This document shows positions 10,569-49,837 of a stretch of 64,000 bases of DNA, piece after piece. The position numbers were made by a program, and so were the translations under genes. Location of the stretch: positions 7,733-71,732 of the forward strand of contig JAYZCG010000009.1 in NCBI GenBank assembly GCA_036338435.1, written 5' to 3'. The stretch's first letter is position 1, and each line of letters begins with the position of its first letter. Origin of the DNA: Acidobacteriota bacterium. GTDB lineage: Bacteria > Acidobacteriota > UBA6911 > RPQK01 > JADFOI01. The notes below the pieces were generated by a model. The model ran no database searches. It saw only the letters and a list, made by a program, of their open reading frames with translations, and was not told the origin of the DNA.

Positions 10569-12332
10569 CTAACCGTAGTTTGGATACTCCACTTTTTGAT
10601 TGGGATCCTTGTCAGGGTTGATATAAACAAACTTGCCCCCGATCATGGTCATCAAAACTGGAATGTCCCTGATCTTTTCCTTGGGCACCGTCAATATATC
10701 TTGCCCTAATACTACTAGGTCGGCTAACTTTCCAGTCTCTATAGAACCTTTAACATCTTCCTCAAAAGATGCATAAGCAGGGACAATAGTGCAAGCGCGG
10801 ATAGCCTCCTCTAAAGTCATACGCTCCTCTGGCTGAATGACCTTTCCTGATTTTCTAAACCGATTCACAGAAGCCCAAATAGTGTTGAGCGGTCCGATAG
10901 GTTTTTGATCCGTTCCCGTCATGACTTTAATTCCGCTATCCAAGTACGTTCTGGTGGGAATTGGTCCGTATCTTCCCGGCTCTACCTGGTTCTCCAAATC
11001 GTCGCTGGCGCGTAACAAACTACTCGTTTGAGGTTCCACCAACACATCATACTTCTTAAGAACCTCAATGTTTTCCCTGGAGGGATAACGAGCATGAGTT
11101 ATAACATGGCGAGCATCCTCACGTGGAAATTCTCGGTATGCCTCCTCCAGCGACTCGGTCACCACATCGAAGGATTCACCTCCACCAAGGTGAATGAACA
11201 TCTGCCAACCCGATTTGTGAGCAGCCTTGATGATAGCTTTCACCTTGTCCGGAGGAACACGCATTCCAGAACCATCCACGCTAATTTTTAGAGTCCCAAC
11301 CCGCAAGGAATCATTGCGAAATTCTGGAGCAAATAGAAAGCTGTCCAAAAAGGCCAGGTTCTGTTCTAGGGTTTCCACCCTAATGGGCATACGGATCATC
11401 GCATTGATTCGAACCGTCAATTTACCCTGTCGACTGAGACGCTGGTAGGCTTGCAGACCCGGCTGGTTGTCCATGGCCTTACCTATGTTGGTGCAGGGAT
11501 CATATAAACTGGTAAGTCCCTGCTTTACAACCGCTTTCGATCCTCTCAAGATATTTTCTTCCAGTACCTCAGTAGGATACAAATTAAAGGGTCCACGGGC
11601 TAATGTAGTCGCTCCTTTTTCCCTCAAAACCCCAGTTGGCTCACCAGTCTCAGGATCCTTCACAATCTCCCCTGCGAAGCCTCTCTCAGTAGGTTGAGGA
11701 GTATCCTTGGTGATGGTACCTACCATGTCTATTAATTTACTGTTTACAATCGTAGTATGATCCGCCCCAAAACCTAGAATAACAGGGTTATCCGGCGATA
11801 CCGGATCTAAATCATATCGTGTAGGCCATCGCTTTTCAGCGAGTTCGCTGGAACTTCGCACTCCACGAGAAAACCAAACAATCTCTCCGGGGGGTGTTTG
11901 TTCCACCTTCATTTGTAGTGCTTTTCTAACTGCCTCAATGGAACGTGCTTCACTAAACATGTCCTCGTAACGATCACTTGTCTTGCCCACCTTGTGGGCA
12001 AAGTGAACGTGGGGATCATTAAAGCCTGGGAGCACCGTACGACCCTCTAGATCAATCTCCTCTGTATTAGGTCCGATCAGTGCTTTGATGTCAGCATTGG
12101 TCCCAACAGCAATGAACCTGCCATCCTTAATGGCTACTGCTTCAGCAATACTGAATTCTTCATCGACAGTGACAATTTTGCCATTAAACAAAACCTTGTC
12201 AGGTTTCAGTGCATCCAGAGGATCAGCCGTAGCACCTATGACCGTGAAAATGCCAGGATGTAAGGCATTCAATCCTAATACGGCCACCAACAACAAACCG
12301 AACAACGCCGAATTTCTTGCAGACTTTTTCAT
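10569..12332 (-). CDS. Exported YtcJ-like metal-dependent amidohydrolase (Amidohydro_3), paralog A
   Basis: Start ATG 12332 with GGAAGGAG RBS; signal peptide. Motifs PGFNDPHVH, GTLKISVDG, MFIH, VITHA, GTDQKP and GSIETGKLADLVVL. Confidence 0.9.
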   Translation of the reverse strand: MKKSARNSALFGLLLVAVLGLNALHPGIFTVIGATADPLDALKPDKVLFNGKIVTVDEEFSIAEAVAIKDGRFIAVGTNADIKALIGPNTEEIDLEGRTVLPGFNDPHVHFAHKVGKTSDRYEDMFSEARSIEAVRKALQMKVEQTPPGEIVWFSRGVRSSSELAEKRWPTRYDLDPVSPDNPVILGFGADHTTIVNSKLIDMVGTITKDTPQPTERGFAGEIVKDPETGEPTGVLREKGATTLARGPFNLYPTEVLEENILRGSKAVVKQGLTSLYDPCTNIGKAMDNQPGLQAYQRLSRQGKLTVRINAMIRMPIRVETLEQNLAFLDSFLFAPEFRNDSLRVGTLKISVDGSGMRVPPDKVKAIIKAAHKSGWQMFIHLGGGESFDVVTESLEEAYREFPREDARHVITHARYPSRENIEVLKKYDVLVEPQTSSLLRASDDLENQVEPGRYGPIPTRTYLDSGIKVMTGTDQKPIGPLNTIWASVNRFRKSGKVIQPEERMTLEEAIRACTIVPAYASFEEDVKGSIETGKLADLVVLGQDILTVPKEKIRDIPVLMTMIGGKFVYINPDKDPNQKVEYPNYG

Positions 12333-12628
12333 GCTTATCTCCTTCCCTCCGTGACAACGTTCCCACATCTTGTGGCGGTGTGCAAGGTAATAGTCTCATC
12401 GTCCATTACCTTGTCTCCCCATAGTACTCAGCAATCCGGACACCTATGATATCCATTAAAGCAAAAGTACATTCGCACATCGGGCAGGATGGATTATTCC
12501 CCCCGACGGGCACATGCCCTCCAATCCATGTTGTTCATGCATTAGACCAGCAATTTTATTGATATCTAGCCGGTGAAATGCATGTGCGGATCAAAGCTGG
12601 ATTCAACAAAAATGCGGCCACACACGAG

Positions 12629-13120
12629 TTAACTGGTGATCACTTCACTGTCCAGTAGATACTGTAAAGGTAGTGCTGTAGTCTCTTTGTGGGTTGATAA
12701 GATGAGGTTGCTCCGTGTCGTTCTCACACCGGGCCATGACTGGATCTCTGCCAAAAGTTTCTCGAAGGTGCTCGTATTATGAGTTCTAATTTTCAGAATA
12801 TGAGACCCCTCGCCTGTAATCGCATGACACTCCAAGATCTCGTCGAAGGCGGCAGTACGTTCAATGATCTTAGGGTAATGTTTGGGAGACTCCGAAGTCA
12901 GAACGATGAAAGCCGTGATGTCAAGGTGCACTTTCTCAGCTTCAATCACAGCATTTATGCTGCGGATGAAACCAGCGTCACTGAGTTTACGGATCCGTTC
13001 ACTCACCGATGGAATGGAAAGTTTAACTTCTTCCGCCATTTCACTACGGCTACTCTGTCCATGGGTCTGCAGAATTTCCAAGATCCTGAGATCTATCTCA
13101 TCCAGCTTGTGTCCACTCAT
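12629..13120 (-). CDS. Lrp/AsnC family transcriptional regulator
   Basis: LDEIDLRILEILQ...LSIPSVSERIRKL HTH; ECHAITGEGSHILKI. Confidence 0.93.
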   Translation of the reverse strand: MSGHKLDEIDLRILEILQTHGQSSRSEMAEEVKLSIPSVSERIRKLSDAGFIRSINAVIEAEKVHLDITAFIVLTSESPKHYPKIIERTAAFDEILECHAITGEGSHILKIRTHNTSTFEKLLAEIQSWPGVRTTRSNLILSTHKETTALPLQYLLDSEVITS

Positions 13121-13218
13121 AAATTCAATTCCTTAAATTCTTCACCGTAGTGCATTGGTCGATCACTCGGAGTACCGTGCCGAAAGATCAAGAGATCTAT
13201 AAAAAATCACAACAGCTT

Positions 13219-14649
13219 TTAAAGATCAAAATAAAGCCCAAACTCTGCAGGATGCGGTCTGAGACGAACATGATCCACCTCATTTTCCCGTTTGTAACCA
13301 ATCCACTTTCTCAACAAATCTTCCGTAAAAACATCGCCCTTCAAGAGGTATTCATGATCTTTTTCTAGAGCATCAAGGACACTTTCTAAGGAGCCTGGCA
13401 CGGACTTTACCTGCCCCTTTTCTTCCGGAGACAACTCATACAGATCTCTATCAATAGGTGTTGGAGGGCTAATCTGGTTGTCAATCCCATCCAAACCTGC
13501 CATCACAATGGCCGCAAAGGCAAGATACGGATTACATGAAGCATCCGGAGTTCGAAATTCGATCCTCTTTGCTTTTTCGCTTGCGTGATACATGGGGATG
13601 CGGACACAGGCACTACGATTGCGCTGAGAATAAACAAGATTTATTGGTGCTTCGTAACCGGGAACAAGTCTTCTGAATGAGTTGGTGGTTGGATTCGTAA
13701 AGGCCAACAAACTTGAACAATGATGCAGTATTCCCCCTACAAAAAACTCTCCTAATGCACTCAGACCAGCATAACGATCTGGTCCAAAAAAAAGATTCTT
13801 TCCCTCCTTCCACAAACTGACGTGAACGTGCATTCCAGAACCGTTGTCCATGAAGATCGGCTTGGGCATAAAGGTGACCGTCTTGTTATGACGACGAGCC
13901 TCATTTTTGACAACGTATTTATACTTCATCAGACTATCCGCAGTGTGGATCAAGGTGTTGAATCGAATATCGATTTCAGCCTGTCCAGCGGTTCCTACTT
14001 CATGATGATGACATTCAGCCTCCACGCCAATCTCCAACATCGTTTTCACCATGGTGGAACGTAGATCCTGGTAATGATCCATAGGAGGTGTCGGAAAGTA
14101 GCCCTCTTTGTACCGAGGCTTGTATCCCAGATTCGGTTCGTCACCATTCCCTGAGTTCCAGAACCCTTCTACGGAGTCGACAGAGTAAAAACCGTGATTG
14201 GGGGTCTGGTCAAATCGGACATCATCAAAAATATAAAATTCAGCTTCCGGACCAAAATATGCCTCATCGGCAATCCCCATCCCATTTAGATATTCTTCAG
14301 CCTTTCGGGCGACATTACGTGGATCACGGGAGTAGATCTCTAGCGTGATTGGATCTTCAACAGAACAAATGAAGCTCAAAGTCACGTGCTCTGTGAATGG
14401 GTCGATGAAGGCTGTCCTTATGTCCGGTTTGAGCAACATGTCACTCTCGTTAATTGACTGAAATCCACGTATCGACGAACCGTCAAACCCTACCCCACTA
14501 ACAAATAAATCTTCGTCTAACCCTCCAGCAGGTATGGAAAAATGGTGCATGAGGCCAGGAAGATCGGTAAATTTCAAATCTATGAATTCAACTTTTTGTT
14601 CTTTTACCAGCTTGGTGACATCTTGAAATGTTTTGGGCTCTGTAATCAT
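13219..14649 (-). CDS. glnA: Glutamine synthetase type I
   Basis: [61 protein letters not shown] and the DRDLYEL adenylylation site. Confidence 0.97.
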
Positions 14650-14845
14650 AGTTTTCCTCTTTTCCTAGTTTAGATTTAGCCGACAGCTTCTGCACTACAA
14701 CAATCTAAATGATTTTCCAGTATAAAAACCTTACAAACATTATGAAATGAGAGAAAATTAAATAAAAAACATAAAATAAGCTTATTACCTTTATTTATTA
14801 ATGGTTACAAGCTTGTTTCATATTAATAAATATGGGTTTATGTCA

Positions 14846-14872
14846 TTTATACCAAAAAAATATTGGTATAAA
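14846..14872. promoter_or_regulatory. Perfect inverted repeat, candidate operator upstream of glnA
   Basis: TTTATACCAA-N7-TTGGTATAAA in an AT-rich intergenic stretch about 200 bp upstream of the glnA start. Confidence 0.5.
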
Positions 14873-15157
14873 ATTTTGAATTGTCGATATGGACGATAGC
14901 ATGCTAAACACAAAAATTTGGCTGCCACTATGGCAGAATGCGAACGCATCACGCAGAGTCAGTCATCAGGTCCACCAACAAACGATATGGACGAATGAGA
15001 GTAATGAAGGCAAGGTGAAATGGGCGTAGCTATCACAAACCGACCCCCTGCACTGAAGAAAACCCATCAGTCTTTCTCCAGACATGTGCCTGGCTAGCTT
15101 GCTTTAAATTTGGCTTCGTACGACCTGATCCAGAAGTAGTGTGGTGACATTTAGCGT

Positions 15158-15610
15158 CTAGGAATCTAGGGACTCGATCCCTCTCTGGATGCCGTCAACA
15201 AACTTTTCTAGATTCTTTTTGGCAACCCTTTCGAGAAGCCCTCCGCCACCGAAGGAGGCCAATTTACCCCCGACGGCGATGTCCCCGGACCAAATCACTT
15301 TTGTTTCCCCGGGCCCTGCCTCCTCAAGAGTGAAGTGAGTCGTCATATCCACAACACTGGCAAGACCTGATCCACGACCCACGACTTTTGCACTTACCGG
15401 TGATTCCTTGTCGAGGATCTGAAGCTTCATGACCATCGCACCCTTAATATAGGAAACTCCAACCTTAGCCTTCACTGTAAAGTTAGTTTGATCTTGAATG
15501 TCAACCTCCTCTACATCAGGCAGATAGTTACTAACCTGTTCGGGATCAATTAAGAATCCGTATGCCTTTTCTCGATCAGCTTTGACTATAAATTCCCCTT
15601 CCAATAGCAT
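15158..15610 (-). CDS. CoxG-like (SRPBCC) protein
   Basis: MLLEGEFIVKA, LIDPEQVSNYLP and GDIAVGGKLASFG, typical of CoxG. Confidence 0.85.
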   Translation of the reverse strand: MLLEGEFIVKADREKAYGFLIDPEQVSNYLPDVEEVDIQDQTNFTVKAKVGVSYIKGAMVMKLQILDKESPVSAKVVGRGSGLASVVDMTTHFTLEEAGPGETKVIWSGDIAVGGKLASFGGGGLLERVAKKNLEKFVDGIQRGIESLDS

Positions 15611-15710
15611 TAGCGTCTTTCTCCTAACATGTTAGATGTTGTTTTGCATTGAGCCATTTCAATGAATCTATCCCAACGAGTCTATCTTATAGCAAAGCAT
15701 CCCCTTCAGA

Positions 15711-16145
15711 TCAAAAAGTCGCCTTCTTCTCAAAGAAGTGATCTACGGCTCCTTGTGCTACAACTTGATCCTGTCCAGCTGTGCCGGCACTGATTCCTAC
15801 ACCGCCCACAACATCACCATCAATGACGATTGGAAGACCTCCGCCAATGACAGAAAATCGTCCCTGATTCGTAATGTGGATCCCGAAGGTGGGTTCACCC
15901 GGCACACATAATTGATTGTATTCATGGGTTCCCTTGCGGGCTGCGGCACCCGTGAAAGCCTTATCGATCGCAATAGAAATACTTGAAATTTTGGCTCCGT
16001 CCATTCTGGTAAAGGCAAGCAAGTTGCCTGACTCATCAGCCACTGCAATACACATCGGCACTTCAATTTCACGGGACTTTTCTTCCGCACCTTCTACTAA
16101 AATTCTAGCTTCATCTAATGAGAGCCTTTTTATACTAAGCATCAA
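15711..16145 (-). CDS. GlcG/HbpS family heme-binding protein
   Basis: CIAVADESGNLLAFTRMDGA, AIDKAFT, GGGLPI and GGVGISAGTAGQD. Confidence 0.9.
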   Translation of the reverse strand: MMLSIKRLSLDEARILVEGAEEKSREIEVPMCIAVADESGNLLAFTRMDGAKISSISIAIDKAFTGAAARKGTHEYNQLCVPGEPTFGIHITNQGRFSVIGGGLPIVIDGDVVGGVGISAGTAGQDQVVAQGAVDHFFEKKATF

Positions 16146-16307
16146 GCTACTCCTCCCTAATATTATAAACTTTCCACTCGCGACGATTCATACAATCGCA
16201 TTTGAGGCATAGAGTCAAGTATCTATGACCTAATCCAACTATGTGCTTAATCCAGCCTTGCCAACATCAAATATTTGAGTTATAAAGACCGGAGAACTGA
16301 CGTGACC

Positions 16308-17777
16308 ATGCTTAACAATCTTGGCCCTATACTGAAAGTGTTGTGCGGACCGGTTGCCTTTGGCGCCGTCTACGCAGCTCCCATGGAAGGACTTTCCTAT
16401 GAGGGACAAGTTGCTTTGGCAACCTTCGTCTGGGCAGTATTCTGGTGGATGGCCCGGCCGATACCCTGGGCGATCTCCTCATTGCTCCCTCTATTTGTTT
16501 TTCCAGCATTTCAGGTGATGTCGATTCGTGACGCTACAGGTCTCTACGGACAGAGGCTTTTCTTCTGGTTACTCGGTATTTCAATGATGGGCTACGCCTT
16601 GGAAAAACATGGAGTGGCTAAACGTATCGCACTGGTTTTTCTGCGACTCAAAGGAGTGGCAAACAGTACAGCGGCCCTTACCTTCATGTACATGCTCGTT
16701 GCCGCCGTCCTATCCTGGTTCATTGCCGATGCTGGCGTGATTGCCATGATGATGCCCATCGGGATGTCTCTTTATGCCTATATTGCCAGTGTGGGAGGCA
16801 TTAATCCTCCGGAAGGGCAAAAGAGCAGACTGGCCTCCTTTCTAGCGCTAGGGACTCTTTACGGGGCCGTTGCAGGAGGTGTAGGTACATTGGCGGGAGG
16901 CCCCCACAACGTCATCGCCGTAGCGCTTTCAGAGAGCCTAGCGGGAGAGTATGTTAGCTGGTTCAGATGGATGAAAGTGGGGGTACCCCTTTTCATCGTA
17001 CTTCTTGTCACCTTCTGGCTTCTACTCCGCTTTTTCTTCCCGCCGGAAATTAGCAAAATTCCCGGAGGGAGAGAATTTATACACGGGGAATTGCAGAAGC
17101 TAGGAAAGTTAACCCGAGGGGAAATTAATGTTCTGGTGGCTTTCGCCTGCATGGTTCTGATGTTCACAGGACCCTCAATAGTCTCCCTGGTGCTTGGAGC
17201 ACAACATCCCCTTGCCCTTTATCTGCGTGGTTCTCTAGCAACCTGGGTCGTTCCTCCGACCATTTTAATCCTCCTTTTCCTCCTGCCTGTCAACTTTAAG
17301 AAGGCAGAGGGGACACTAGTCTGGGACGATGTAGCCCAAAGAGCACCATGGAATATTATCTTCCTATGCACCGGTGGTGTGGCAATGGCCGATGCTCTTA
17401 TGGACTTTGGAGTCCTGGATTATACCCAAGGGGTCATCGGATCATTGGGTATCGGTGCAACAGGATTGCCCTTTTTGGCAGCTGGTTCCGTGGTTGTAGG
17501 CACCAACCTCTTCTCAGGAACCGCCGCTGCCACGCTATTTTGTAGCGTCTATATTCCGGCTGCAATGGATGTGGGATTCAACCCTGTCAGCATTGGCATA
17601 CTCGTGACCAATCTAGCCGTAGGCATTCTGTTCCCCTGGTCGGGCGCTTCAGCTGGAACCGCCTTTGCTTCCGGTTATCTGGACATGCAGGAGATGATTA
17701 AGGTAGGGATTGTGGGCACCGTGTTACTGATAGTACTCTCCGTGGGCATACACTTCATATTCGAGCCAATCCTCTAG
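16308..17777 (+). CDS. SLC13/DASS family anion (dicarboxylate/sulfate):Na+ symporter
   Basis: Multiple TM helices; GGVGTLAGGPHNVIA, LFSGTAAATL and PWSGASAGTAFASG. Likely start ATG 16308. Confidence 0.85.
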   Translation: MLNNLGPILKVLCGPVAFGAVYAAPMEGLSYEGQVALATFVWAVFWWMARPIPWAISSLLPLFVFPAFQVMSIRDATGLYGQRLFFWLLGISMMGYALEKHGVAKRIALVFLRLKGVANSTAALTFMYMLVAAVLSWFIADAGVIAMMMPIGMSLYAYIASVGGINPPEGQKSRLASFLALGTLYGAVAGGVGTLAGGPHNVIAVALSESLAGEYVSWFRWMKVGVPLFIVLLVTFWLLLRFFFPPEISKIPGGREFIHGELQKLGKLTRGEINVLVAFACMVLMFTGPSIVSLVLGAQHPLALYLRGSLATWVVPPTILILLFLLPVNFKKAEGTLVWDDVAQRAPWNIIFLCTGGVAMADALMDFGVLDYTQGVIGSLGIGATGLPFLAAGSVVVGTNLFSGTAAATLFCSVYIPAAMDVGFNPVSIGILVTNLAVGILFPWSGASAGTAFASGYLDMQEMIKVGIVGTVLLIVLSVGIHFIFEPIL

Positions 17778-17907
17778 GTCTGGGTTCAGGAACCGATGCG
17801 CTCTCCTCGGATACCGTGTCACGACAGGCTACAGCCAGCGCGCGAACCAAACATTAGCTAGGCTTCTCTTCTCCAAGTCAAAAACCCGTGGTGGTGGCGT
17901 GCGAAAT

Positions 17908-19662
17908 CTAAAATGCCCCCTCGACCTCATAAACAACCTTGCCATCCACGACGGTCATCAAGATTCGGAGTCGCTCAAGATCACTTTCTGGAAAAGTCAT
18001 ATAGTCTCCTGCAAGCACGACTAGATCAGCCAATTTACCGGGTTCGATTGAGCCCAGAATGTCCTCCTCCCCGCTATAAGCGGCGGCCCAAAGAGTGTAC
18101 ATATAAAGGGCCTCTTCCCTACTGACTTTCTCTTCCGGATCTAGCTGACGACCCTTTTGGTCAATGCGCCTCACCCAGTTTTGGATATTAAATAAGGGGA
18201 AAGCGGTGCGGTGAGTGAATGCATCCGCTTCTGCGGCCGGCCTGATGCCAGCTTCGATCAAAGACTTGACCGGTTGCATCTTGTACACTGCATCCATGCC
18301 ATACATTGTGACCAAAGCATCATTACCGTACATGGCTTTTGAATAAACGCTCGGAATAATATCCATTTCTTTGAGCTGTGCGTAGTGCTCTGGCTGCAAC
18401 ATTAGACCGTGATCAATGCTAAAATGGCGCCCTACTAAAGATTTTTCTTTGTGTGCTTCCTCAAAGACTTCAAGCATGAGGGTGTTGCTCATATCACCAC
18501 TACTATGGAGTGAAGAGACCGTCCAACCATAACGATTAGCCAAAATAATGCTTTGCCGGTCACTAGTAGCCAAATCACCGCTTTCTTCCCACTTGTTCAT
18601 TCCAAAAGGTCCGTAAGGATCCTCCGGCAGGAGCGTAGTCTTGGCCTTAGAAGTGTTAGCAGACCCATTGTTGGAGGTTCCATCGACAACCTGTACTGAC
18701 GTCCCGATTATTTTGAACCAGTCATTGCCAACATCAGTCAGGTTGCCTAATCTTTTTAAATAGGCCTCCGGATATCCATTTTGGCGCAGAAAATGGTGTG
18801 CTACCCGCACCCTCATCGTTAGCTCCCGATGCATCATCAGTTCCCGAAATACTGTAACCTCCAGGCCTCCAGCTCGCCCCATCAAGGTAGTTAATCCCAT
18901 CTCATTGTGACGACGGAAAGATGCCTTCTGCGGCTCCAGCAAAGACTCGACTTCCGGCCAAGGTTCTAGTTCGAATCCAGGAATTCCAGCGGCCGCGCCC
19001 CTGAGGTGTCCCGTCAAATCTCCGTTGTCATCTAGAACAATGCCTGCAACATCCTTGGGAATTCTGTCTAAGACTAGACTATTAGCTACCACCTGGTCAT
19101 TCATCGCCTCAATATAGAGAGGATTATTTGGAGCAACTTCATCCAAAAGATTCACGTTTAATTCATGGTTAACTACCGGATTGCTAGGCCCAGACAACGC
19201 TAAGAACTCTCCTGGCTGAGCTTCCTTGACTAACGTTCGTAGACCCTCTAAAGCACTCTCCAGAGTATCCCAATCAATGTCGTCATCGCTAAATGGAACC
19301 GCCATACTTCGATCTCGGGCCGGGCGCGTAACCCACGCTGAGTGCAAATGAGTGTCTATAAACCCCGGCACGACACTGCGCCCCTCTAGGTCTATCCTTT
19401 GGGTCTCTGGACCCGCCATGGCCAAAACCCTTTGGGTGGTTCCCACAGCCAGAAACTTGCCGTCTCGGATCGCCACCGCTTGGGCAATGGTAAATTGCTC
19501 GTCAGCAGTTATAACCTTGCCGTTATAAAAGACTGCGTCGGCATAAGCGACCACCTCCGCAGGCAGGGTACCGGCGCTTTGCCCCAATCCTGTCTGGGTC
19601 ATAGACAACAAAACTACTGCCATCCCACAGCAACGAAAATAACTCTTACAAATTCGAATCAT
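17908..19662 (-). CDS. Exported YtcJ-like amidohydrolase, paralog B
   Basis: Signal peptide; PGFIDTHLH, SSLHSSGD, SIDHG, AAEAD and GSIEPGKLADLVVL. Confidence 0.9.
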   Translation of the reverse strand: MIRICKSYFRCCGMAVVLLSMTQTGLGQSAGTLPAEVVAYADAVFYNGKVITADEQFTIAQAVAIRDGKFLAVGTTQRVLAMAGPETQRIDLEGRSVVPGFIDTHLHSAWVTRPARDRSMAVPFSDDDIDWDTLESALEGLRTLVKEAQPGEFLALSGPSNPVVNHELNVNLLDEVAPNNPLYIEAMNDQVVANSLVLDRIPKDVAGIVLDDNGDLTGHLRGAAAGIPGFELEPWPEVESLLEPQKASFRRHNEMGLTTLMGRAGGLEVTVFRELMMHRELTMRVRVAHHFLRQNGYPEAYLKRLGNLTDVGNDWFKIIGTSVQVVDGTSNNGSANTSKAKTTLLPEDPYGPFGMNKWEESGDLATSDRQSIILANRYGWTVSSLHSSGDMSNTLMLEVFEEAHKEKSLVGRHFSIDHGLMLQPEHYAQLKEMDIIPSVYSKAMYGNDALVTMYGMDAVYKMQPVKSLIEAGIRPAAEADAFTHRTAFPLFNIQNWVRRIDQKGRQLDPEEKVSREEALYMYTLWAAAYSGEEDILGSIEPGKLADLVVLAGDYMTFPESDLERLRILMTVVDGKVVYEVEGAF

Positions 19663-19691
19663 ACTATCTCCTTATTCGCACAAAGTCGGCA

Positions 19692-21701
19692 CTAGTCCAT
19701 AAGGGCTGCTTCCCTTTTTCCCTCTACTGTGAAGGCTTCACCAATTTCAGCAATTTCACTGTCTTCAAAGCTGTAGTGGGGACCTACCGGTGCGGTTTCC
19801 CATTCACTTGCCAAAGTCTCATTTAACACGATGACCTTTCCCCCCACCATAGTCATGAGCGGTCGAATCTTGAGAAGATCATCAACGGGAACAGTAAAAT
19901 AGTCTCGATCCATAACCATAAAATCTGCCCATTTCCCCGTCTCAAGGGTGCCAAGCTCATCCTCCTTCATGATGTAGCGAGAGGCCCAAGCGGTCCACAT
20001 CTTCAAAGCATGTACCCGATCAATCCGTTCCTCGGGTTGCCACACTCTCCCATCATATTTCCGGGTAATAGCTTGCCACAACATAAAGAAAGGTGGCTGG
20101 CGCTGCCCACGTCTCACAGTACCTTCGCCTCCTCCTCCTTTGAAAGCACCGCCGCCGTAGTGCTGTCCCACCAGATTTACTCCAGATTCGATCCAAGTCC
20201 TAAATGGAATGAAAAAGTCCTCAATGTTATCAGTGTAGGGACCATAATCCTTGATCCATGAACGCATCACACTCACGTAGTCGGGACCGCAACTAAGGAT
20301 GAGCCCATACCTCTTAATCTTGTCAATTACATCGGGCTGTTTCCCAATCAAATCACAATGCTCTAAGGCAAAGTGCTGATCATGAATGTCCTGCACCGAC
20401 ATACCTGTTAGTTCTCTAGCCTCATCGACCATCTCAATGAATCTTCTCAGACTTTCGCTGCCACAGGTATGTACTCCCTTAATCCTCCAGCCTGCCCTAA
20501 TTGCATTAACCAAAGTGTCCCAATGCAAATCCCCCTTTTGGGGACATGTCTCACGGGCCTTCAGGTGAGCCGGGGCATTGGTATCTGGTCCCAGACAGGA
20601 CTCTGGGAAGTGTGAATCCCATCGCTCTGAGGCCACACCATCAAACCAGAAATAGTCATTGCCAATCCCCTGCAAAACGCCGGTACGCCGATACAATTGT
20701 CGGGTCTCCTGGGGATCGGTCGGCATCCGGTGCACTTCGTAATGTGCGTTGAACCGGATTGGCATTTGTCCCATCTCGGCTAGTCTGGCATATCCGGTCA
20801 TCACTTTGGGAAACTGTACTCGACTTGAAAACGTTGTAACTCCTAAGGAGGCCCACGCCTCAGACTCCAGTTTTAGCATCTGAGCCAACGTATTGGGCTC
20901 CAGACCCTCCAGAAAGAGTTCCCAGGTGATCACCGACATTTCTTGACTCCCGACCCATCCGATATCCGGGATGTCTTCGCCAATCACATCGCCATGCATT
21001 GTCTCTTGGATAGAGGCAGAATAACCGGGCAGGAAATCATTGATAACCTCCAAACCTTTGGAGTTAATAAACCCTCGATTCCCAGGTCGCACCAGGATGG
21101 GATTATCAGGAGCCCACTGATCCAATGCACGGCGATTAGTCAAAACCCGTGTAGCTCCCCAAACACCTATCTGTTTAGGATCAGACGGATGACCATCAAC
21201 CGCAACCATGAGCCATTTACCGGGTTCCATGTTTGCCACGGCTTCTTGAATTCCATCTCGGAGAGCACCTTGAGTTCTCTCCAGATCCAACTCTGCCTCA
21301 ACTGTCACCTCCTCAGCCGGATACTCGTACCCAAAACGGTCTAACCAACGCAACGACCTTCCATAAATATGCTGGTGGGTCTCAATAATGCCCGGAATCA
21401 AGGTGCGTCCATTCAGGTCCAACACCTGGGTTCTGCGGCCAGCCAAAGAACGAATTTCCTCGTTAGTACCTAGCTTCATGATGGAATCACCTTTAACAGC
21501 TACAGCCTCATAGACATTGCCCACTTCAGCCGAAGCTGACTTGTCATCCATACTAACAACCTTACCCCCAACAAAGATCGTGTCGGCATAGCCCATGATC
21601 TCTACCTCGGGTGGCAGTTGCTGTGAGTACAAGAAAAATCCAGGCAAAAAAACGATGAGCACTGTGGCCCAAAACTTACATTTAGCAGTGTTGATTTTCA
21701 T
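19692..21701 (-). CDS. Exported YtcJ-like amidohydrolase, paralog C (divergent active site)
   Basis: Signal peptide; PGIIETHQH, KGVHTCG, ALEHCD and GTLETGKWADF; GQHYG where paralogs have GTD/EAD. Confidence 0.85.
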   Translation of the reverse strand: MKINTAKCKFWATVLIVFLPGFFLYSQQLPPEVEIMGYADTIFVGGKVVSMDDKSASAEVGNVYEAVAVKGDSIMKLGTNEEIRSLAGRRTQVLDLNGRTLIPGIIETHQHIYGRSLRWLDRFGYEYPAEEVTVEAELDLERTQGALRDGIQEAVANMEPGKWLMVAVDGHPSDPKQIGVWGATRVLTNRRALDQWAPDNPILVRPGNRGFINSKGLEVINDFLPGYSASIQETMHGDVIGEDIPDIGWVGSQEMSVITWELFLEGLEPNTLAQMLKLESEAWASLGVTTFSSRVQFPKVMTGYARLAEMGQMPIRFNAHYEVHRMPTDPQETRQLYRRTGVLQGIGNDYFWFDGVASERWDSHFPESCLGPDTNAPAHLKARETCPQKGDLHWDTLVNAIRAGWRIKGVHTCGSESLRRFIEMVDEARELTGMSVQDIHDQHFALEHCDLIGKQPDVIDKIKRYGLILSCGPDYVSVMRSWIKDYGPYTDNIEDFFIPFRTWIESGVNLVGQHYGGGAFKGGGGEGTVRRGQRQPPFFMLWQAITRKYDGRVWQPEERIDRVHALKMWTAWASRYIMKEDELGTLETGKWADFMVMDRDYFTVPVDDLLKIRPLMTMVGGKVIVLNETLASEWETAPVGPHYSFEDSEIAEIGEAFTVEGKREAALMD

Positions 21702-22529: not shown

Positions 22530-22626
22530 AAAACTCTACCGATCTCTTGTTCTGAACCGAAGAGAATATCGGTCTGTTAGTTAAAAATCCAGTTAAATTC
22601 TTGCCCTCAAAAGACGAACTCACGAT

Positions 22627-22655
22627 TTGACAAAAGTGTAGGATAGCCTTATGTT
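22627..22655 (+). promoter_or_regulatory. Putative sigma70 promoter of the aldolase/dehydrogenase/hydrolase operon
   Basis: TTGACA (22627-22632), 17 nt, TATGTT (22650-22655); GAAGGAG RBS before ATG 22713. Confidence 0.55.
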
Positions 22656-22712
22656 GACCCTGATCAGGCTAACCTAATCCAACGCATTATAATTACGAAG
22701 GAGTATGCCGAC

Positions 22713-23420
22713 ATGAACTTAGATGAAATAAAAGAAAAACTGGCCCGGGCTTGCCGTATCATCGAAATGGAGGGAGTGACACAGGACGGTCGGGGTCATA
22801 TCTCGTACCTGCACCCCGACGGAGACAAAGTTCTAATTCCTGGACACTTACACGACTATGGGAAAGCGATCGCAGATGTTCAAGCCGAAGATATAGTCAC
22901 TATGGATTTTGATGGAAACGTCATTGAGGGAAAGCACCCTGAGCCGATGGGTGAGTTCTACGTCTATGTGGCCGCGTTTCAAGCCCGCGAAAACATTAAG
23001 AGTGTTTCCCATTTTCATCCCCCATACGCCAACATACTGGCTGCTTCCGGAAATAGTATCTTGCCAATCGCCCGTGATGGTTGTGTCTTCTACGATGGAG
23101 TTCCTGTTTACGAGGGATACCCTCTATACGTCGGAACCAAAGAGATGGGTGAAGATGTAGTCACCACACTGGGCGACAAAAAAGCCGTCCTCCATAAGGG
23201 ACATGGTGCCTTTGTGGTAGGGGGAACTGTTGAAGAGACTTTGTTCAGATCAGTAAGTCTCGAAAAAGCTGCCAAAACCCAAGTTTACGCTTCCATCATG
23301 GGTGAATTATCTCCCATTCCAATTGGATCCATGACAGAACGAGAAAAACATCCAGATGCTCATATTGTGGATGACTTTTTCGGATACTATACAGGCAAAA
23401 TGGAGAAACTAGGAAGGTAA
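22713..23420 (+). CDS. Class II aldolase/adducin family protein
   Basis: GRGHISY, VSHFHPPYA and AVLHKGHGAFVVGGTVEE metal-binding pattern. Confidence 0.9.
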   Translation: MNLDEIKEKLARACRIIEMEGVTQDGRGHISYLHPDGDKVLIPGHLHDYGKAIADVQAEDIVTMDFDGNVIEGKHPEPMGEFYVYVAAFQARENIKSVSHFHPPYANILAASGNSILPIARDGCVFYDGVPVYEGYPLYVGTKEMGEDVVTTLGDKKAVLHKGHGAFVVGGTVEETLFRSVSLEKAAKTQVYASIMGELSPIPIGSMTEREKHPDAHIVDDFFGYYTGKMEKLGR

Positions 23421-28126: not shown

Positions 28127-28267
28127 GCCACCCGACGGTTTGCACGTTCCACATTGGGTTTAGGAAACATGGGAATTGAGTTTCTGCCGCTTGCGACACC
28201 TTCCTTTATGTTGTGTTTACTATTTTTCCACCTTAACCGTGGAACAGCCCACATGGATAGGTGTAAC

Positions 28268-30007
28268 TTAAAATGCACCAACAGCTTCATGGACCACTTC
28301 TCCACCTACTATGGTCATAAGAACACGGAGCTTGTCTAAATCCTCCTCAGGAAAAGTCAAATAATCACCTCCTAGGACCACAAGATCGGCTAGCTTGCCC
28401 GGCTCGATGGAACCCAGAATGTCCTCCTCCCCGCTGTAAGCGGCGGCCCAAAGAGTGTACATGTAAAGGGCCTCTTCCCGACTGGCTTTCTCATCAGGAT
28501 CCATCTGGCGGCCTTTGTCATCCTTCCGGGTTATCCACCTTTGCATGTTGTAAAGAGGTGCTGCGTAACGACCACGGGTGTCGGCTTCTGCCGCTGGCCT
28601 GAGGCCTGCCTCTATCAGGGACTTGACCGGCTGCATCTTGTAGACCGCATCCATTCCATACATATGAATTAACTTGTCGTTGTTAAAGAGAGCTTTAGAG
28701 TAGAGACTAGGAATGACGTCCATCGCTTTGATTTTTTCGTAGTGTTCAGGCTTCAGCATCATACCGTGATCGATTCCAAAATGGCGACCGACCAAAGACC
28801 TCTCTCTATGTGCTTCTTCAAAGACCTCCAGCAATAGAGTGTTGCTCAAATCACCGCTACTGTGTAGCGAGGAAACCGACCACCCATAACGATTAGCCAA
28901 TAGGATGCTTTGGCGGTCACTAGTAGCTAAATCACCGCTTTCTTCCCACTTGTTCATGCCGAAAGGTCCATAAGGATCTCCTGGAACCATGTTAATTTTG
29001 GCTTGAGAAGTTGCAGCTGAACCGTTCCCGGCAGTGCCATCCACCACTTGAACTGAGGTCCCAATGATTTTGAACATGTCATTCCCGACGTCAGTTAGGT
29101 TGCCTAGCCTCTTCAGGTAGGCCTCAGCGAATCCATTCTGGCGCAAAAAGTGGTGAGCCACACGGACTCTCATGGTTAGTTCATCCCGCGTCATCAGGTC
29201 CCTAAAGACCGACACCGACAAACCGCCCGATCGCCCCATTAAAGTGGTCAATCCCATCTCATTGTGGAGTAGAAAGGTATTTTTTTGAGCTTCCAACAAA
29301 GATTCTACTTCCGGCCACGGCGCTAGTTCGAATGTTGGAACCCCAGCAGCAGCTCCTCTTAGTTGGCCTGTCATCTGACCTCTAGCGTCTCTTTCAATGC
29401 CGGGGGTATCGACTGGAACTCGTTTTAAAACAAGGCTGTTTGCTGCAATCTGATCATTTGAAGCTTCGATCCAAAGCATATTCTTGGGAGCAATTTCATC
29501 GAGGAGAGTAACGTTTAACTCTTGTGTCACTACGTCGTTGCTTGGGCCGCTGAGGGCAATGACCTCACCAGGTTGGGCGGCTTGCACACGGGTCCGTAAT
29601 CCCTCAAGGGCTCCCTCAAGAGTTTCGTAATTGATCTCCGGTCCATCATTAGCCCTAGCCCCTGGGGGGCGAACCACCCAGGCAGAATGTAGATGGGTAT
29701 CTATAAATCCGGGCACCACGCTTCGTCCCTCGAGATCAATGCTCCGAGTCTTGGGACCTGCCATAGCTCTAATCCTGGTACTACCTCCCGAAGCCAAAAT
29801 TTTTCCGTCTCTAATAGCGACGGCCTCGACAATCGTGAACTGCTCGTCGGCTGTCAAAATCATGCCATTGTAAAAGACTATATCGGCATACGCGATGACC
29901 TCGTCAGGAAGGTCTTGGACATTCTGAGCCTGTAGAGTACACACACACAATATGGACAACAGTGAGAGCAAAAAAAGACGATTCATTCTCATAACGAATT
30001 CCTCCAA
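28268..30007 (-). CDS. Exported YtcJ-like amidohydrolase, paralog D (close duplicate of B)
   Basis: Signal peptide; PGFIDTHLH, SSLHSSGD, GIDHG and AAEAD; long stretches identical to 17908-19662. Confidence 0.9.
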   Translation of the reverse strand: MEEFVMRMNRLFLLSLLSILCVCTLQAQNVQDLPDEVIAYADIVFYNGMILTADEQFTIVEAVAIRDGKILASGGSTRIRAMAGPKTRSIDLEGRSVVPGFIDTHLHSAWVVRPPGARANDGPEINYETLEGALEGLRTRVQAAQPGEVIALSGPSNDVVTQELNVTLLDEIAPKNMLWIEASNDQIAANSLVLKRVPVDTPGIERDARGQMTGQLRGAAAGVPTFELAPWPEVESLLEAQKNTFLLHNEMGLTTLMGRSGGLSVSVFRDLMTRDELTMRVRVAHHFLRQNGFAEAYLKRLGNLTDVGNDMFKIIGTSVQVVDGTAGNGSAATSQAKINMVPGDPYGPFGMNKWEESGDLATSDRQSILLANRYGWSVSSLHSSGDLSNTLLLEVFEEAHRERSLVGRHFGIDHGMMLKPEHYEKIKAMDVIPSLYSKALFNNDKLIHMYGMDAVYKMQPVKSLIEAGLRPAAEADTRGRYAAPLYNMQRWITRKDDKGRQMDPDEKASREEALYMYTLWAAAYSGEEDILGSIEPGKLADLVVLGGDYLTFPEEDLDKLRVLMTIVGGEVVHEAVGAF

Positions 30008-30138
30008 ATCAATTTTAAAATATTTATCATATCGGTGAAAATAAATGGAAGACCCTGGCGAACCACAAACACAAAATACAAAATGGACTTGCGGACTGAA
30101 CCCCGGAATTTGAAGTTCTAAATTGTTGCTGCAAACCT

Positions 30139-31863
30139 CTAGCGCTCATATACAACCTTGCCCCCTACAATCGTCAAATCTACTTCCAATTCGGATATTT
30201 GATCTTCTGATACGCTCATATAATCGCCATCCAACACTGCTAGATCGGCTAACTTGCCAACCTCGATGCTGCCCAGCTTTTTCTCATCTCCTACATAGGC
30301 CGCTGCCCAGATTGTTTTCATGCGTAGAGCATCCTGTCGGGAAACTTTTTGCTCCTTTCCCCAAATCCGATCAGATCCGTCAACACAACGACAGACAGCT
30401 TTCCCAACAGTCCATATGGGACGTCCCAGAGCTTCATCACCCATGTCAGCTTCCACGGTGGGGCGAATACCAAAGTCTAAGTACTTCTTGAGAGGTAACA
30501 TCTCATTGACATAGTCCGCACCAAAAACCTCCCGATAGACTGAAGAGCCTTCCCCGTGCAAGTCACTAAAAACGTTTTTGAGGCTACTACTGGGAATTAC
30601 TCCCAGTTGCCGGATGCGGGAGATATCCGCATCGTCAAGTTCCATCATGTGATCCATAGTAAATCGCTGATTCGAGCTCTTCACTATTTGATTCTCTTGT
30701 GCTTCTTCAATCAGATCTAGTATGGCTCGAACTGCGATATTGCCCTTTATATGGCTATTTGGAGTACTCCACCCGTAACGTAATGCTTCCAATATATCTC
30801 GACGTCTTTGTGGCCAGCCCGCAAGCGTATCTGTGGTAGCCGGTATTTTAGTTGTCCAGTGACCCATGGCTTCTTCCGATCCAGGAACTGCCATGCCACC
30901 GCCCGCCCCTGCAATACGGAACCAATCATCACCAATGTCACTTAGATTCCCGGTATTGGGGAAATTCACAGGACCCGGAAACCCCACTCGCCAACGGACC
31001 GTCAAGCCACCTTGAAGCCAGATCTCACGCAACGAATTAAATTGGTCGACAGTGATGCGAGTTACTGCCATAGTTAGGCCCCAGCTGTTAACCAAGCCCA
31101 TTATTTTCTTGTGCCAAAAAATCTTCTTTTCAACTGGCATCGTATTGATGATATGTTTGCCCAGTTCTATAGCAGCACGATCAGAGATTAGAGTTGAGCC
31201 ATCCGCAGGCATCCCTGGCATATCAGGGGAAATCGTGGCCCATTCCAAGGCTTTTGTGTTGACGATCACTGGCCTTAATTGGGCAGCTGCCACAACTACC
31301 ACCGGGTTTCGTGGAGCCACCGAATCGAGCTTATGACGGGTTACACTTCTAAGAATTCCAGCATTGCGAGCAGGAACTCGAACCAGGTCACCTGAACTTA
31401 CAGCCTCTACAGCACGTTGTATATCCCGCAATGCCTCGTCGGGATCCTCCCAGAGTAAACCTAACAGTTCTACCTTCCCCTCCCACTGTACCCCGTTTTC
31501 CTCTAGCAACATGTGACGGAACACATAATCACCCAGGTGGTAATGAGTGTCTAGAAACCCAGGTACAACTGTTTTCCCCTTGAGATCAATGATCTGAGTA
31601 TTAGGACCCGACATTCTCAAGATCATAGAATCCTTGCCTACAGCTAGGAAGTGGCTATCTCGGATAGCCACTGCCTGCACTATCGAAAAATCGTCGTCTA
31701 CGGTTAGGATCTTGCCATTCAACAATATGATTTCAGGATAGGACAAAATCTCAGGAGGAAGGTCCTCTAGAGATGTCCCAGGCAGAGAACTCTGGGCGTA
31801 TCCAGCACAAAAAACGAGTGTAAAAACCCATGCCCCAAAAAGTTGAAATGCTATTCGGATCAT
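30139..31863 (-). CDS. Exported YtcJ-like amidohydrolase, paralog E
   Basis: Signal peptide; PGFLDTHYH, PNSHIKG, TMDHM, TVEAD and GSIEVGKLADLAVL. Confidence 0.88.
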   Translation of the reverse strand: MIRIAFQLFGAWVFTLVFCAGYAQSSLPGTSLEDLPPEILSYPEIILLNGKILTVDDDFSIVQAVAIRDSHFLAVGKDSMILRMSGPNTQIIDLKGKTVVPGFLDTHYHLGDYVFRHMLLEENGVQWEGKVELLGLLWEDPDEALRDIQRAVEAVSSGDLVRVPARNAGILRSVTRHKLDSVAPRNPVVVVAAAQLRPVIVNTKALEWATISPDMPGMPADGSTLISDRAAIELGKHIINTMPVEKKIFWHKKIMGLVNSWGLTMAVTRITVDQFNSLREIWLQGGLTVRWRVGFPGPVNFPNTGNLSDIGDDWFRIAGAGGGMAVPGSEEAMGHWTTKIPATTDTLAGWPQRRRDILEALRYGWSTPNSHIKGNIAVRAILDLIEEAQENQIVKSSNQRFTMDHMMELDDADISRIRQLGVIPSSSLKNVFSDLHGEGSSVYREVFGADYVNEMLPLKKYLDFGIRPTVEADMGDEALGRPIWTVGKAVCRCVDGSDRIWGKEQKVSRQDALRMKTIWAAAYVGDEKKLGSIEVGKLADLAVLDGDYMSVSEDQISELEVDLTIVGGKVVYER

Positions 31864-49820: not shown

Positions 49821-49837
49821 GATGTCGAAAAACATCG

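Follow-up and report, generated by a model that had tools for sequence, protein, structure and literature searches.

The stretch of DNA analysed here (64,000 nucleotides, referred to as the window) comes from a seawater acidobacterium (Acidobacteriota). It raised the question of how exported amidohydrolases without the metal-bridging lysine of strand 4 form a metal centre, and whether a neighbouring protein supplies the missing ligand. Between positions 10569 and 31863 of the minus strand, five intact open reading frames for YtcJ-like enzymes were found (A to E). All passed the gathering score of 29.7 bits for Pfam Amidohydro_3 (PF07969, amidohydrolase superfamily) with 258 (A), 182 (B), 110 (C), 181 (D) and 120 bits (E), and the five paralogs reported by the initial annotation were thus borne out. 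Their N-termini consisted of a basic start and a hydrophobic 12-mer (mean Kyte-Doolittle value 2.1–2.9), and a twin arginine (RR) was absent from all five, a composition which fits the Sec-type leaders predicted before. All five had HxH where strand 1 ends, invariant within each sub-family, and together with the two later His it aligned in 5/5 paralogs. The strand-4 Lys of the K-x-x-x-D-G motif was found solely in A, its position being occupied by V323 in B/D, S358 in C and a Gly run in E. Four paralogs (A, B, D and E) have the strand-8 Asp, while C carries G-Q-H-Y-G there instead. The strings quoted earlier for strand 4 (GTLKISVDG in A, GTSVQVVDG in B/D, GVASERWDS in C, GAGGGMAVP in E) and strand 8 (GTD in A, EAD in B/D/E, GQHYG in C) were exact, and the observation of five paralogs, four of them without the strand-4 Lys, was confirmed.

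Paralog A (10569-12368, minus strand; VGTLKISVDGS) served as reference for the Lys position. The top PDB sequence match of A was 3ICJ (E 1.7e-16), with the Lys region inside the alignment. Profile alignment with hhalign placed the Lys opposite V323 of B, and aligned canonical relatives (IKVxxDGALGSR) gave the same placement. Outside the Lys motif A was found atypical, with IHLGGGES in place of HAIGD and ITHARY in place of IEHAQ. As a minor correction, its start is likely M13 at 12332. YtcJ-like proteins (cd01300/COG1574) such as 3ICJ, 3IGH and BwBSH1, a metal-dependent bile salt hydrolase, share Pfam family and fold with the paralogs, and the best matches by sequence and by structure came from this group. 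The paralogs have in common with them HxH, both later His and, apart from C, the Asp, and A also has the Lys. Canonical YtcJ-like enzymes need six residues including the carboxylated Lys, and the K373A variant of BwBSH is inactive (PMC13081902). A would keep this canonical, carbamylated-Lys type of centre. In contrast to canonical members, B, D and E are without the Lys, with a Glu in strand 8 and a 30-residue insertion after strand 4, C is without Lys and Asp, and all five paralogs carry predicted export leaders.

Paralog B (17908-19662, minus strand) represents a Lys-less type with the motifs TVQVVDG and ExD. Its key residues are H105, H107, V323 at the Lys position, D327, H386, D390, D417-H418 and E478-x-D480. 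H105, H107, H386, H418, D327, D390 and D417 were found in 117/117 homologues of the B/D type and E478 in 116/117; V, T, I or L occupied the Lys position, K in 0/117. Paralog D (28268-30007, minus strand), 73% identical to B and of the same type, carries AAEADT at strand 8; its start likely lies at M6 (29992), again a minor correction. Paralog E (30139-31863, minus strand) has a Gly-rich strand 4 (RI[SA]GAGGGMAVPG) and the key residues H107, H109, H371, D404-H405 and E471-x-D473, of which H107, H371, D404, H405, E471 and D473 were present in 59/59 homologues. Each Lys-less type was conserved across 59 to 119 homologues. B/D, C and E formed three sub-families from marine and groundwater Acidobacteriota, each with an invariant active-site set of its own and with the four His kept. 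Judged from the sequences, the Lys-less pattern is not due to chance and does not reflect gene decay; B/D, C and E are Lys-less variants of a known enzyme kind. In Acidobacteriota, YtcJ-like amidohydrolases with Sec export would have undergone a large lineage-specific expansion, to which the five genes belong.

K was found at the strand-4 position in 0/350 relatives of the Lys-less types, and the four His ligands were retained in at least 97% of the sequences of every Lys/Glu class among 388 relatives. The strand-5 and strand-6 His were invariant (H386/H418 in B, H411/H448 in C, H371/H405 in E). New invariant residues accompanied the loss of the Lys, namely the Glu two residues before the strand-8 Asp in B/D/E, and S-E-R-W-D-S, E-H-C and G-Q-H in C. 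With the Lys loss fixed throughout the sub-families, these residues gained and the four His kept, the altered metal centres suggested by the initial annotation were supported. The missing Lys itself was real, but its strangeness had been overstated, as both kinds of Lys-less centre, mononuclear and Glu-bridged, are well documented for the superfamily (PMC4407906; for the mononuclear NatAM, PMC7204872).

The AlphaFold model of B (pLDDT 92.3) showed residues 2-27 as an isolated helix with a linker of low confidence behind it, and is confidently predicted to be a YtcJ-like (beta/alpha)8 barrel with a composite beta domain of N- and C-terminal parts. For A, C, D and E the alignment predicts the same barrel fold. 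Foldseek returned 3IGH and 3ICJ as best matches of the B model (E 1e-28, probability 1.00). The next neighbours were 6SJ0-6SJ4, labelled "AHS with 3-HAA", which from ligands and date are probably NatAM, a benzoxazole-forming amidohydrolase; mononuclear deaminases and HutI appeared further down the match list. NatAM binds one Zn through H75, H77, H253 and D345, uses H290 as shuttle and has no Lys (PMC7204872). This Zn set (HxH, strand-5 His, strand-8 Asp) and the strand-6 His shuttle correspond to the residues retained in B, D and E, in which the Lys is absent and the extra invariant Glu is also found. The deaminase-type mononuclear enzymes (ADA, CDA, AtzA, TrzN, HutI) and NatAM lack the strand-4 Lys as B, D and E do. 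However, the sequence similarity is marginal (E 5e-9, short stretches only), they are cytoplasmic and without the ExD motif, and the deaminase-type HxxE after strand 5 is missing from the paralogs (H-S-S-G-D in B/D, H-I-K-G-N in E, H-T-C-G-S in C). We give an even chance to the reading that the Lys-less proteins are active exported hydrolases with a metal centre rebuilt in cis, mononuclear in B/D/E, and with the neighbouring cohesin proteins as accessories. B/D, C and E would then be three old conserved sub-families whose centres were rebuilt from residues of the same chain; metal number and catalysis, unlike fold and conservation, we infer. In B, D and E one catalytic metal would sit at the alpha site, with HxH, the His of strand 5 and the Asp of strand 8 as ligands. 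Proton transfer would fall to the strand-6 His, which has this part in NatAM and deaminase-type members, and the new Glu would be an added ligand or second-shell carboxylate assuming the electrostatic role of the lost carbamate.

The same Glu may instead preserve a binuclear centre, with E478 in B and E471 in E replacing the carbamylated Lys as in-chain bridge. In an eight-stranded barrel strands 4 and 8 face each other, and the Glu should point inward, one layer under the Asp; such a relocated bridge would parallel the Glu-bridged members of the superfamily, in which binuclear centres of this kind are known (PMC4407906). Sorting the 388 relatives by the strand-4 Lys and the Glu two residues before the strand-8 Asp gave 38 with Lys and no Glu, 210 with Glu and no Lys, 140 with neither and 0 with both. 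This mutual exclusivity suits a relocated bridging carboxylate no less naturally than it does a mononuclear site, although the sequences are phylogenetically related and the pattern may thus reflect one or few events. The invariance of both beta-site His (strands 5 and 6) also fits a second metal, but mononuclear members such as NatAM keep both later His too. Furthermore, the Lys-less clade keeps the Glu better than the Asp (Asp in 170/210). Against this stand the place of the Glu, which two residues before the Asp may lie too deep for both metals, and type C, left unexplained with Gln at the Glu position. We regard the relocated bridge as unlikely.

Paralog C (19692-21701, minus strand), 29 bp upstream of B, is the type without Lys and Asp. 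Its strand 4 reads W-x-D-G-V-A-S-E-R-W-D-S, followed by H411-x-C413, E447-H448-C449 and G-Q513-H514-Y-G at strand 8. Among 119 homologues with at least 59% identity, S358, E359, R360, W361, D362, H411, E447, H448 and C449 were found in 119/119, Q513 in 117/119 and H514 in 116/119; H411 and H448 are the strand-5 and strand-6 His. The only PDB match was a remote one (3ICJ, E 8e-5). The complete absence of the strand-8 Asp in C counts against a rebuilt centre. The centre of C would be yet another variant, in which strand 8 carries Gln-His and a Cys adjoins each of the later His. D-aminoacylase has a Cys in place of the Lys bridge and contains a Cys-bridged Zn pair. This enzyme (1M7J, 1RJP) also belongs to Amidohydro_3, with weak N-terminal similarity only (E 5e-4). 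C has five conserved Cys, and since conserved Cys adjoin both later His, a Cys-bridged type may apply to C. Unlike D-aminoacylase, mature B and D contain zero Cys and E has two that are not conserved, so the Cys-bridged type was found in none of these three.

The loss of canonical catalytic residues, Lys in B/D/E and Lys plus Asp in C, might also indicate pseudoenzymes, which would serve as docking modules or bind amide-containing substrates in the periplasm or at the surface for TonB-dependent uptake. TonB-type outer-membrane barrels recurred in the neighbourhood (13 related loci), and no member of the sub-families has a known activity. A few clade members (P0194, P0196 and the neighbour at L060) are without HxH as well, and some relatives may therefore be non-catalytic. 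On the other hand, the four His were kept in at least 97% of the 350 Lys-less sequences, the new invariant polar residues at active-site positions form the pattern of a working metal site, and catalytic Lys-less relatives exist (NatAM, PMC7204872). A pseudoenzyme nature of the paralogs is improbable, and the strict retention of the metal ligands speaks against the non-hydrolytic or binding role considered in the initial annotation.

The window also holds three genes for proteins ending in CFFYMH, all on the minus strand. The first (3914-4483), ending in DAPPAIFSCFFYMH, has no YtcJ-like neighbour; it is flanked by the genes of an Nramp transporter and an Amidohydro_2 protein, and that of an S41 PDZ peptidase is close by. 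Its orthologues in L019, L026, L044, L054 and L094 keep the S41 neighbour. The second (9799-10359), a predicted secreted single cohesin ending in LPMFACFFYMH, lies 122-209 bp downstream of A; its start is most likely 10359, rather than 10446. It matched a 186-aa database protein with E 8.8e-75. The third (22002-22529), 300 bp upstream of C in an arrangement that recurs in the related locus L001, is a predicted secreted single cohesin with strands in residues 24-163 and a free 12-residue tail (IEFIPACFFYMH). Its AlphaFold model reached a pLDDT of 91.5, the tail being coil at about 66, and the top 50 Foldseek matches were all cohesins (best 2XDH, 6KGC and 5NRM; E 1.5e-10, TM at most 0.79). As modelled, the CFFYMH proteins are single cohesin modules, nine-stranded jelly-rolls with a free tail. 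With Pfam Cohesin (PF00963) two copies scored 20.9 and 20.8 bits, below the gathering score of 24.1, and the third gave no match; a profile search with the CFFYMH family also retrieved dockerin-bearing scaffoldins. Across 73 proteins of about 25% body identity only the Cys and the terminal His of the tail were invariant, and this Cys is the sole one of the mature protein. ScaE of Ruminococcus flavefaciens, an anchoring scaffoldin, consists of a single cohesin and a short C-terminal signal, and its gene adjoins those of secreted hydrolases. The CFFYMH proteins resemble it in one cohesin, a short C-terminal signal and neighbouring secreted hydrolase genes, and share the fold of cellulosomal and non-cellulosomal scaffoldin cohesins (2XDH, 6KGC, 1AOH). 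They differ from the latter in their diderm host and in the hexapeptide signal, which is neither LPXTG nor SLH. Pfam detected no dockerin domain in the five amidohydrolases. The cohesin plus CFFYMH-tail module and its hexapeptide signal are undescribed.

The link between CFFYMH and amidohydrolase genes proposed earlier was correct at the genomic level, strong and local: YtcJ-like genes made up 36% of the open reading frames at a distance of one gene from CFFYMH, 9% at two, 2% at three and 0% at four or more. A YtcJ-like gene was abutted by 31/65 CFFYMH genes, and most of these partners were Lys-less. With a tail that is free and flexible in the model, and with a Cys-bridged Zn pair as precedent in D-aminoacylase, the tail might enter the amidohydrolase active site and there complete, bridge or block the centre through its Cys thiolate, its terminal His or its terminal carboxylate. 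In its chemistry a peptide C-terminus is also similar to the N-acyl amino acids that YtcJ-like enzymes use as substrates. However, CFFYMH genes also adjoin Lys-keeping enzymes (A, L051, L089, L097) and unrelated secreted hydrolases (an unknown 506-aa family, alpha/beta hydrolases, an MBL-fold protein), and no CFFYMH gene was found within 6 kb of D, E or the sampled amidohydrolase arrays L116, L117 and L118/119. Moreover, the Lys-less families bear compensating invariant residues of their own, and the invariance of the tail, set against the great diversity of the active sites, points to a third party shared by all. A bridging ligand given in trans, as the initial annotation had suggested, was thus unsupported, and we consider tail insertion highly improbable.

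Since only the Cys and the terminal His of the tail are invariant, contact between tail and metal may nevertheless occur. The motif [small]-C-F-F-Y-M-H-COOH could dock into the metal centre of neighbouring hydrolases as a clasp completing, gating or tethering Lys-less amidohydrolases, a decidedly improbable arrangement. If true, such a metal-mediated protein-peptide clasp would be the diderm, non-dockerin counterpart of cohesin-dockerin enzyme display. A role of the adjacent cohesin-CFFYMH proteins as accessory scaffolds or anchors, and not as donors of a missing ligand, would fit better, because Lys-keeping and unrelated hydrolases are among their partners, and because a CFFYMH neighbour is missing from many Lys-less enzymes.

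A search of seawater metatranscriptomes for RNA contigs covered A, B and C. Contigs, which are assembled and may include DNA, were found over A (10785-11025 and 11353-11556), B (17990-18818) and C (19924-21838), and two Lys-less sub-families, the B/D and C types, were thus seen in seawater RNA contigs. The window further encodes GS, AsnC, a CitMHS transporter, UbiD, an XDH-type Mo enzyme, an aldolase and a 2-hydroxyacid dehydrogenase, and Amt, P-II and GS are encoded in the related locus L001; this gene context, together with the TonB-type barrels of the 13 related loci, fits nutrient scavenging. For location and substrates we infer that the enzymes most likely act in the periplasm or at the cell surface, where they would hydrolyse amide-type bonds of dissolved organic matter and thereby feed carbon and nitrogen uptake.

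The five YtcJ-like amidohydrolase genes A (10569-12368), B (17908-19662), C (19692-21701), D (28268-30007) and E (30139-31863) were found as intact open reading frames of 574-669 codons, all on the minus strand. All five products matched the Pfam family Amidohydro_3 with 110-258 bits, far over the cutoff of 29.7. The NCBIfam models gave only partial, sub-threshold matches to A-E, so that no named enzyme has an equivalog among the five. Paralog A shared 25-33% identity with the other four, and B and D were 73% identical. Every N-terminus consisted of a basic start followed by a strongly hydrophobic 12-mer, twin arginine being absent, and the AlphaFold model of B showed a detached helix at residues 2-27 and then a low-confidence linker; these putative leaders fit Sec export. 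The initial annotation had described five exported paralogs, four of them devoid of the metal-bridging lysine of strand 4. This overall observation was confirmed, and each motif string quoted for it proved exact in the ORF translations and the alignment. Housekeeping genes including SurA, TatC, FtsH and Mfd identify the window as chromosomal DNA of a diderm. Near-identical sequence was found in many seawater metagenomes, and homologues with names came without exception from Acidobacteriota MAGs. Contigs of four seawater metatranscriptomes covered A, B and C, keeping in mind that these are assembled contigs which may include DNA. Decayed pseudogenes were ruled out, since the reading frames are intact, remain conserved in dozens of genomes at identities down to 43-59% and, for A, B and C, occur in RNA contigs. 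Each type lacking the lysine had several members per genome, commonly in tandem arrays. Two arrays from related genomes contained five to seven YtcJ-like gene calls (L116:1043-9775 and L117:172-12128); in L117, short calls of 243 and 372 aa resemble one split or truncated copy. B/D-type proteins ended with a G-A-F-COOH terminus in 61 of 120 homologues (P0001-P0120; window 17908-17916 and 28268-28276), a peptide that may serve docking or recognition.

Canonical relatives carry a six-residue YtcJ signature within the motifs HxH, [IL]-K-[VL]-x-x-D-G-[AS]-L-G-S-R, H-A-I-G-D, I-E-H-A-Q and G-S-D-A-P-V-E. In a YtcJ-like bile salt hydrolase all six residues, the carboxylated lysine included, are required (PMC13081902). 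Paralog A kept the lysine (VGTLKISVDGS) in a region that aligns to 3ICJ. Its remaining motifs depart from the canonical ones, with IHLGGGES for HAIGD, ITHARY for IEHAQ and GTDQKP for GSDAPVE, and the A-like enzymes of two other loci (L051 and L089) have these deviations in common with it. Using a profile-profile alignment of 66 B/D-type sequences versus A, V323 of B was placed opposite the lysine of A with the next D-G in register, and MAFFT with canonical members agreed with this placement to within one residue. In the MAFFT alignment, neither lysine nor an acidic residue was present in the strand-4 stretch of B and D. Strand 4 is a glycine run in E and reads V-A-S-E-R-W-D-S in C.

For the B/D type, 117 full-length homologues of 43-99% identity were compared. 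H105, H107, D327, H386, G389, D390, D417 and H418 were present in all 117 and E478 in 116, with the lysine position occupied by V in 107 and by T, I or L in the others. All 59 sequences of the E type had H107, H371, D404, H405, E471 and D473. For the C type (119 sequences, each at least 59% identical), H109, H111, D354, S358, E359, R360, W361, D362, S363, E367, C369, H411, E447, H448 and C449 were found without exception, Q513 in 117 and H514 in 116. Such conservation in 119 sequences marks the loss of the strand-8 aspartate as a fixed, selected state. Judged by residue conservation, the B/D, C and E types are separate, well-populated sub-families, none of them degenerate. The exported paralog C also has five conserved cysteines, C369, C386, C449 and C471 in at least 98% of the 119 homologues and C413 in 105. 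Two of these directly flank the strand-5 and strand-6 histidines (H-x-C and E-H-C); a disulfide linking strands 5 and 6 is conceivable for them, as is a role as thiolate ligands of the metal. A different state was seen in two collected homologues (P0194 and P0196) and in the amidohydrolase adjoining L060:53-646, which belong to the Lys-less clade and carry DNNGDG or GSDADN in place of HxH; the strand-8 aspartate was absent and the strand-8 glutamate kept. These three are possible pseudoenzymes in the true sense.

A joint alignment of all collected relatives revealed a correlated change on strand 8. Among 388 sequences, which are kin to each other and do not represent independent events, the strand-4 lysine and a glutamate two residues before the strand-8 aspartate never occurred together. 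Glutamate without lysine was found in 210, lysine without glutamate in 38 and neither in 140, almost all of the last class being type C with G-Q-H-[YFW]-G. The four histidine ligands were retained in at least 97% of each class. As only 170 of the 210 glutamate sequences kept the strand-8 aspartate, the glutamate is the more constant residue. By this alignment, the lysine loss was accompanied by a specific same-chain replacement. The initial annotation had held that a glutamate or lysine of the same chain at the bridging position, in enzymes active alone, would speak against its reading; the exclusivity in 388 sequences comes close to the first of these. K357, from an N-K-W motif in an insertion after strand 4, was not taken as an obligate bridge; it was present in 100 of 117 sequences with R, L, Y or H as alternatives, versus 117 of 117 for true ligands. 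For B and D, a cysteine bridge as in D-aminoacylase was dismissed, as the mature proteins contain no cysteine.

The model of B, built with 66 homologues, reached a pLDDT of 92.3 and a pTM of 0.89. A Foldseek search of the PDB placed the YtcJ-like structures 3IGH and 3ICJ on top (E 1e-28), followed by 6SJ0-6SJ4 ("Amidohydrolase, AHS with 3-HAA") and then by mononuclear deaminases, AtzA/TrzN and imidazolonepropionases. From ligand names and release date we take 6SJ0-6SJ4 to be NatAM; a literature search for "6SJ0" gave no match. NatAM holds one Zn by His75, His77, His253 and Asp345, uses His290 as proton shuttle and has no lysine (PMC7204872). This residue set is exactly kept in B, D and E, which likewise have no lysine. 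Mononuclear centres occur in the amidohydrolase superfamily next to binuclear ones bridged by carboxylated lysine or glutamate (PMC4407906). Within the superfamily as a whole, lack of the lysine is thus an already known type of variation; within the YtcJ-like group it is not. Most likely, the Lys-less paralogs would be active, exported metallohydrolases with a centre completed by residues of their own chain. For B, D and E we favour, with about even confidence, a single alpha-site metal on HxH, the strand-5 histidine and the strand-8 aspartate, in which the strand-6 histidine would serve as acid/base and the new glutamate as extra ligand or second-shell carboxylate. The main rival, a retained binuclear centre with the glutamate as relocated bridge, is favoured by the strict lysine/glutamate exclusivity but was considered rather unlikely. 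Paralog C would be a further variant with Gln-His on strand 8 and a cysteine beside both later histidines. That the Lys-less paralogs are non-catalytic binding proteins is disfavoured by the invariant ligands and was considered improbable.

The initial annotation had also considered that proteins ending in CFFYMH might supply the missing ligand in trans. Three ORFs of the window have this end (CFF1, 3914-4483; CFF2, 9799-10359; CFF3, 22002-22529); in same-strand order CFF2 follows A and CFF3 precedes C and B. A scan for the back-translated tail followed by a stop codon, with each species represented by one genome, yielded at least 114 loci, of which, among those listed, 66 contained a real ORF of 165-260 residues with signal-like N-terminus and tail. 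By estimate, roughly 70 matches to a pattern of this length are expected by chance, and the loci beyond the 66 look like chance matches. Where a phylum was on record, the 66 came nearly all from marine and groundwater Acidobacteriota MAGs with several copies per genome. A profile search retrieved at least 627 clusters at 50% identity (E 1e-3 or better), dockerin-bearing scaffoldins among them. In the best 150 of the 627, 136 of 138 short proteins ended with C-[FLY]-[FLY]-[YF]-x-H, usually CFFYMH. Across 73 CFFYMH proteins the mean column identity was 25%, with the cysteine and the terminal histidine as sole invariant residues; in the three window copies the tail cysteine is the only one of the mature protein. 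The structure of CFF3, predicted with database homologues (pLDDT 91.5), comprised an all-beta sandwich at residues 24-163 and a low-confidence coil for the last 12 residues. Cohesins made up all top 50 Foldseek hits, with 2XDH, a non-cellulosomal one, in first place. No paper, Pfam or NCBIfam model for the tail was found in the searchable literature and databases, NCBIfam having been tried on two CFFYMH proteins. The tail also terminates a 559-aa TPR-cohesin fusion at the end of a "Bat-like" MoxR (AAA_3)/DUF58/VWA operon (L036:572-7335, also L010, L014 and L061); systems of the MoxR-VWA kind often act as chaperones in the maturation of metalloenzymes. A C-terminal-processing S41 peptidase with PDZ domain (915-2609) lies near CFF1, and orthologues in L019, L026, L044, L054 and L094 keep this neighbour. 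Hydrophobic C-termini are what the PDZ domains of such peptidases recognise; the neighbourhood may be mere synteny among close relatives.

In the 66 loci listed, the share of YtcJ-like genes was 36% (39/107) among ORFs adjacent to a CFFYMH gene, 9% at two, 2% at three and zero of 25 beyond. A YtcJ-like gene abutted 31 of 65 CFFYMH genes, often spaced by 0-100 bp. These partners mostly lacked the lysine and covered many sub-types, those keeping it being A, the A-like enzymes of L051 and L089 and the canonical enzyme of L097. Other immediate neighbours included a 506-aa secreted family (9 cases), alpha/beta-hydrolase-like proteins and an MBL-fold protein. The secreted family of about 500 aa, second commonest immediate neighbour with its 9 cases in 11 of the loci listed, has the motifs GGG-x-YGE-x-W and H-x-H-x-Y/F-N/P-T-V (L102:667-2367, L069:996-2459, L069:2672-4282, L108:4035-5717 and others); it had no match in Pfam or PDB sequences. 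D and E have no CFFYMH gene nearby. No such tail was found within 6 kb of the amidohydrolases in loci chosen through these enzymes, namely L116 (five genes, three in tandem), L117 (seven gene calls) and L118/119 (one). A Rosetta-stone fusion of the tail in cis to an amidohydrolase was rejected with 0 of 359 sequences. Genetic coupling of CFFYMH and amidohydrolase genes is real; in view of lysine-keeping and unrelated partners and of Lys-less genes without such a neighbour, it is neither Lys-less-specific nor one-to-one. Of the earlier interpretation, altered centres were supported, given the fixed lysine loss and the same-chain replacement, and the ligand donated in trans was not. Contact of the tail with the metal of the hydrolases, for which the tail is free and its invariant residues are classic metal ligands, was judged very improbable. 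The tail stays invariant while the cohesin bodies that carry it vary greatly and the secreted hydrolases beside them vary too; the best reading of it is a shared handle for a cognate adaptor, on which anchoring, sorting or maturation would take place. In this respect, CFFYMH proteins resemble single-cohesin anchoring scaffoldins.

Among the five amidohydrolase genes lie those for glutamine synthetase, an AsnC regulator, a CitMHS transporter, two UbiD decarboxylases, an XDH-type Mo enzyme and its 2Fe-2S subunit, a class II aldolase, a 2-hydroxyacid dehydrogenase and an Abhydrolase_10 protein. In the syntenic locus L001, Amt and P-II adjoin the glutamine synthetase gene, and genes for TonB-type outer-membrane barrels, amidase and S9 peptidase recur in related loci. 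This gene context suggests a role in scavenging amide-rich organic matter. Promoter and terminator counts at 9500-22900 equalled those of shuffled controls, therefore an operon was not inferred. DUF5916/CBM9-type proteins with an aromatic C-terminal residue, likely outer-membrane proteins, recur in amidohydrolase/CFFYMH clusters (L001:7594-9765; L049, L051, L099 and L106). Elsewhere in the window, a SAM riboswitch (79 bits, 49718-49819, plus strand) lies directly upstream of a PALP-family gene (49801-51201), overlapping its listed start. A tRNA gene (69 bits, 54301-54373, minus strand) falls inside the listed ALAD ORF (53268-54395), at its 5' end; the real ALAD start must lie further downstream.

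The amidohydrolase superfamily is divided into catalytic subtypes by the diversity of its metal sites. In the present case, an abundant and transcribed YtcJ-like branch appears to have exchanged the carbamylated lysine for a strand-8 glutamate, or for Gln-His plus cysteine; to our knowledge it has no characterised member, and the current label "amidohydrolase YtcJ" conceals what is likely different chemistry. The Lys-less enzymes have expanded massively in pelagic and groundwater Acidobacteriota next to transporter and nitrogen-assimilation genes, which makes them candidate degraders of dissolved organic matter rich in amides. The cohesin-CFFYMH module is more novel than the Lys-less amidohydrolases, and its tight hydrolase linkage suggests that a Gram-negative phylum has a hitherto undescribed system for enzyme display, sorting or maturation.
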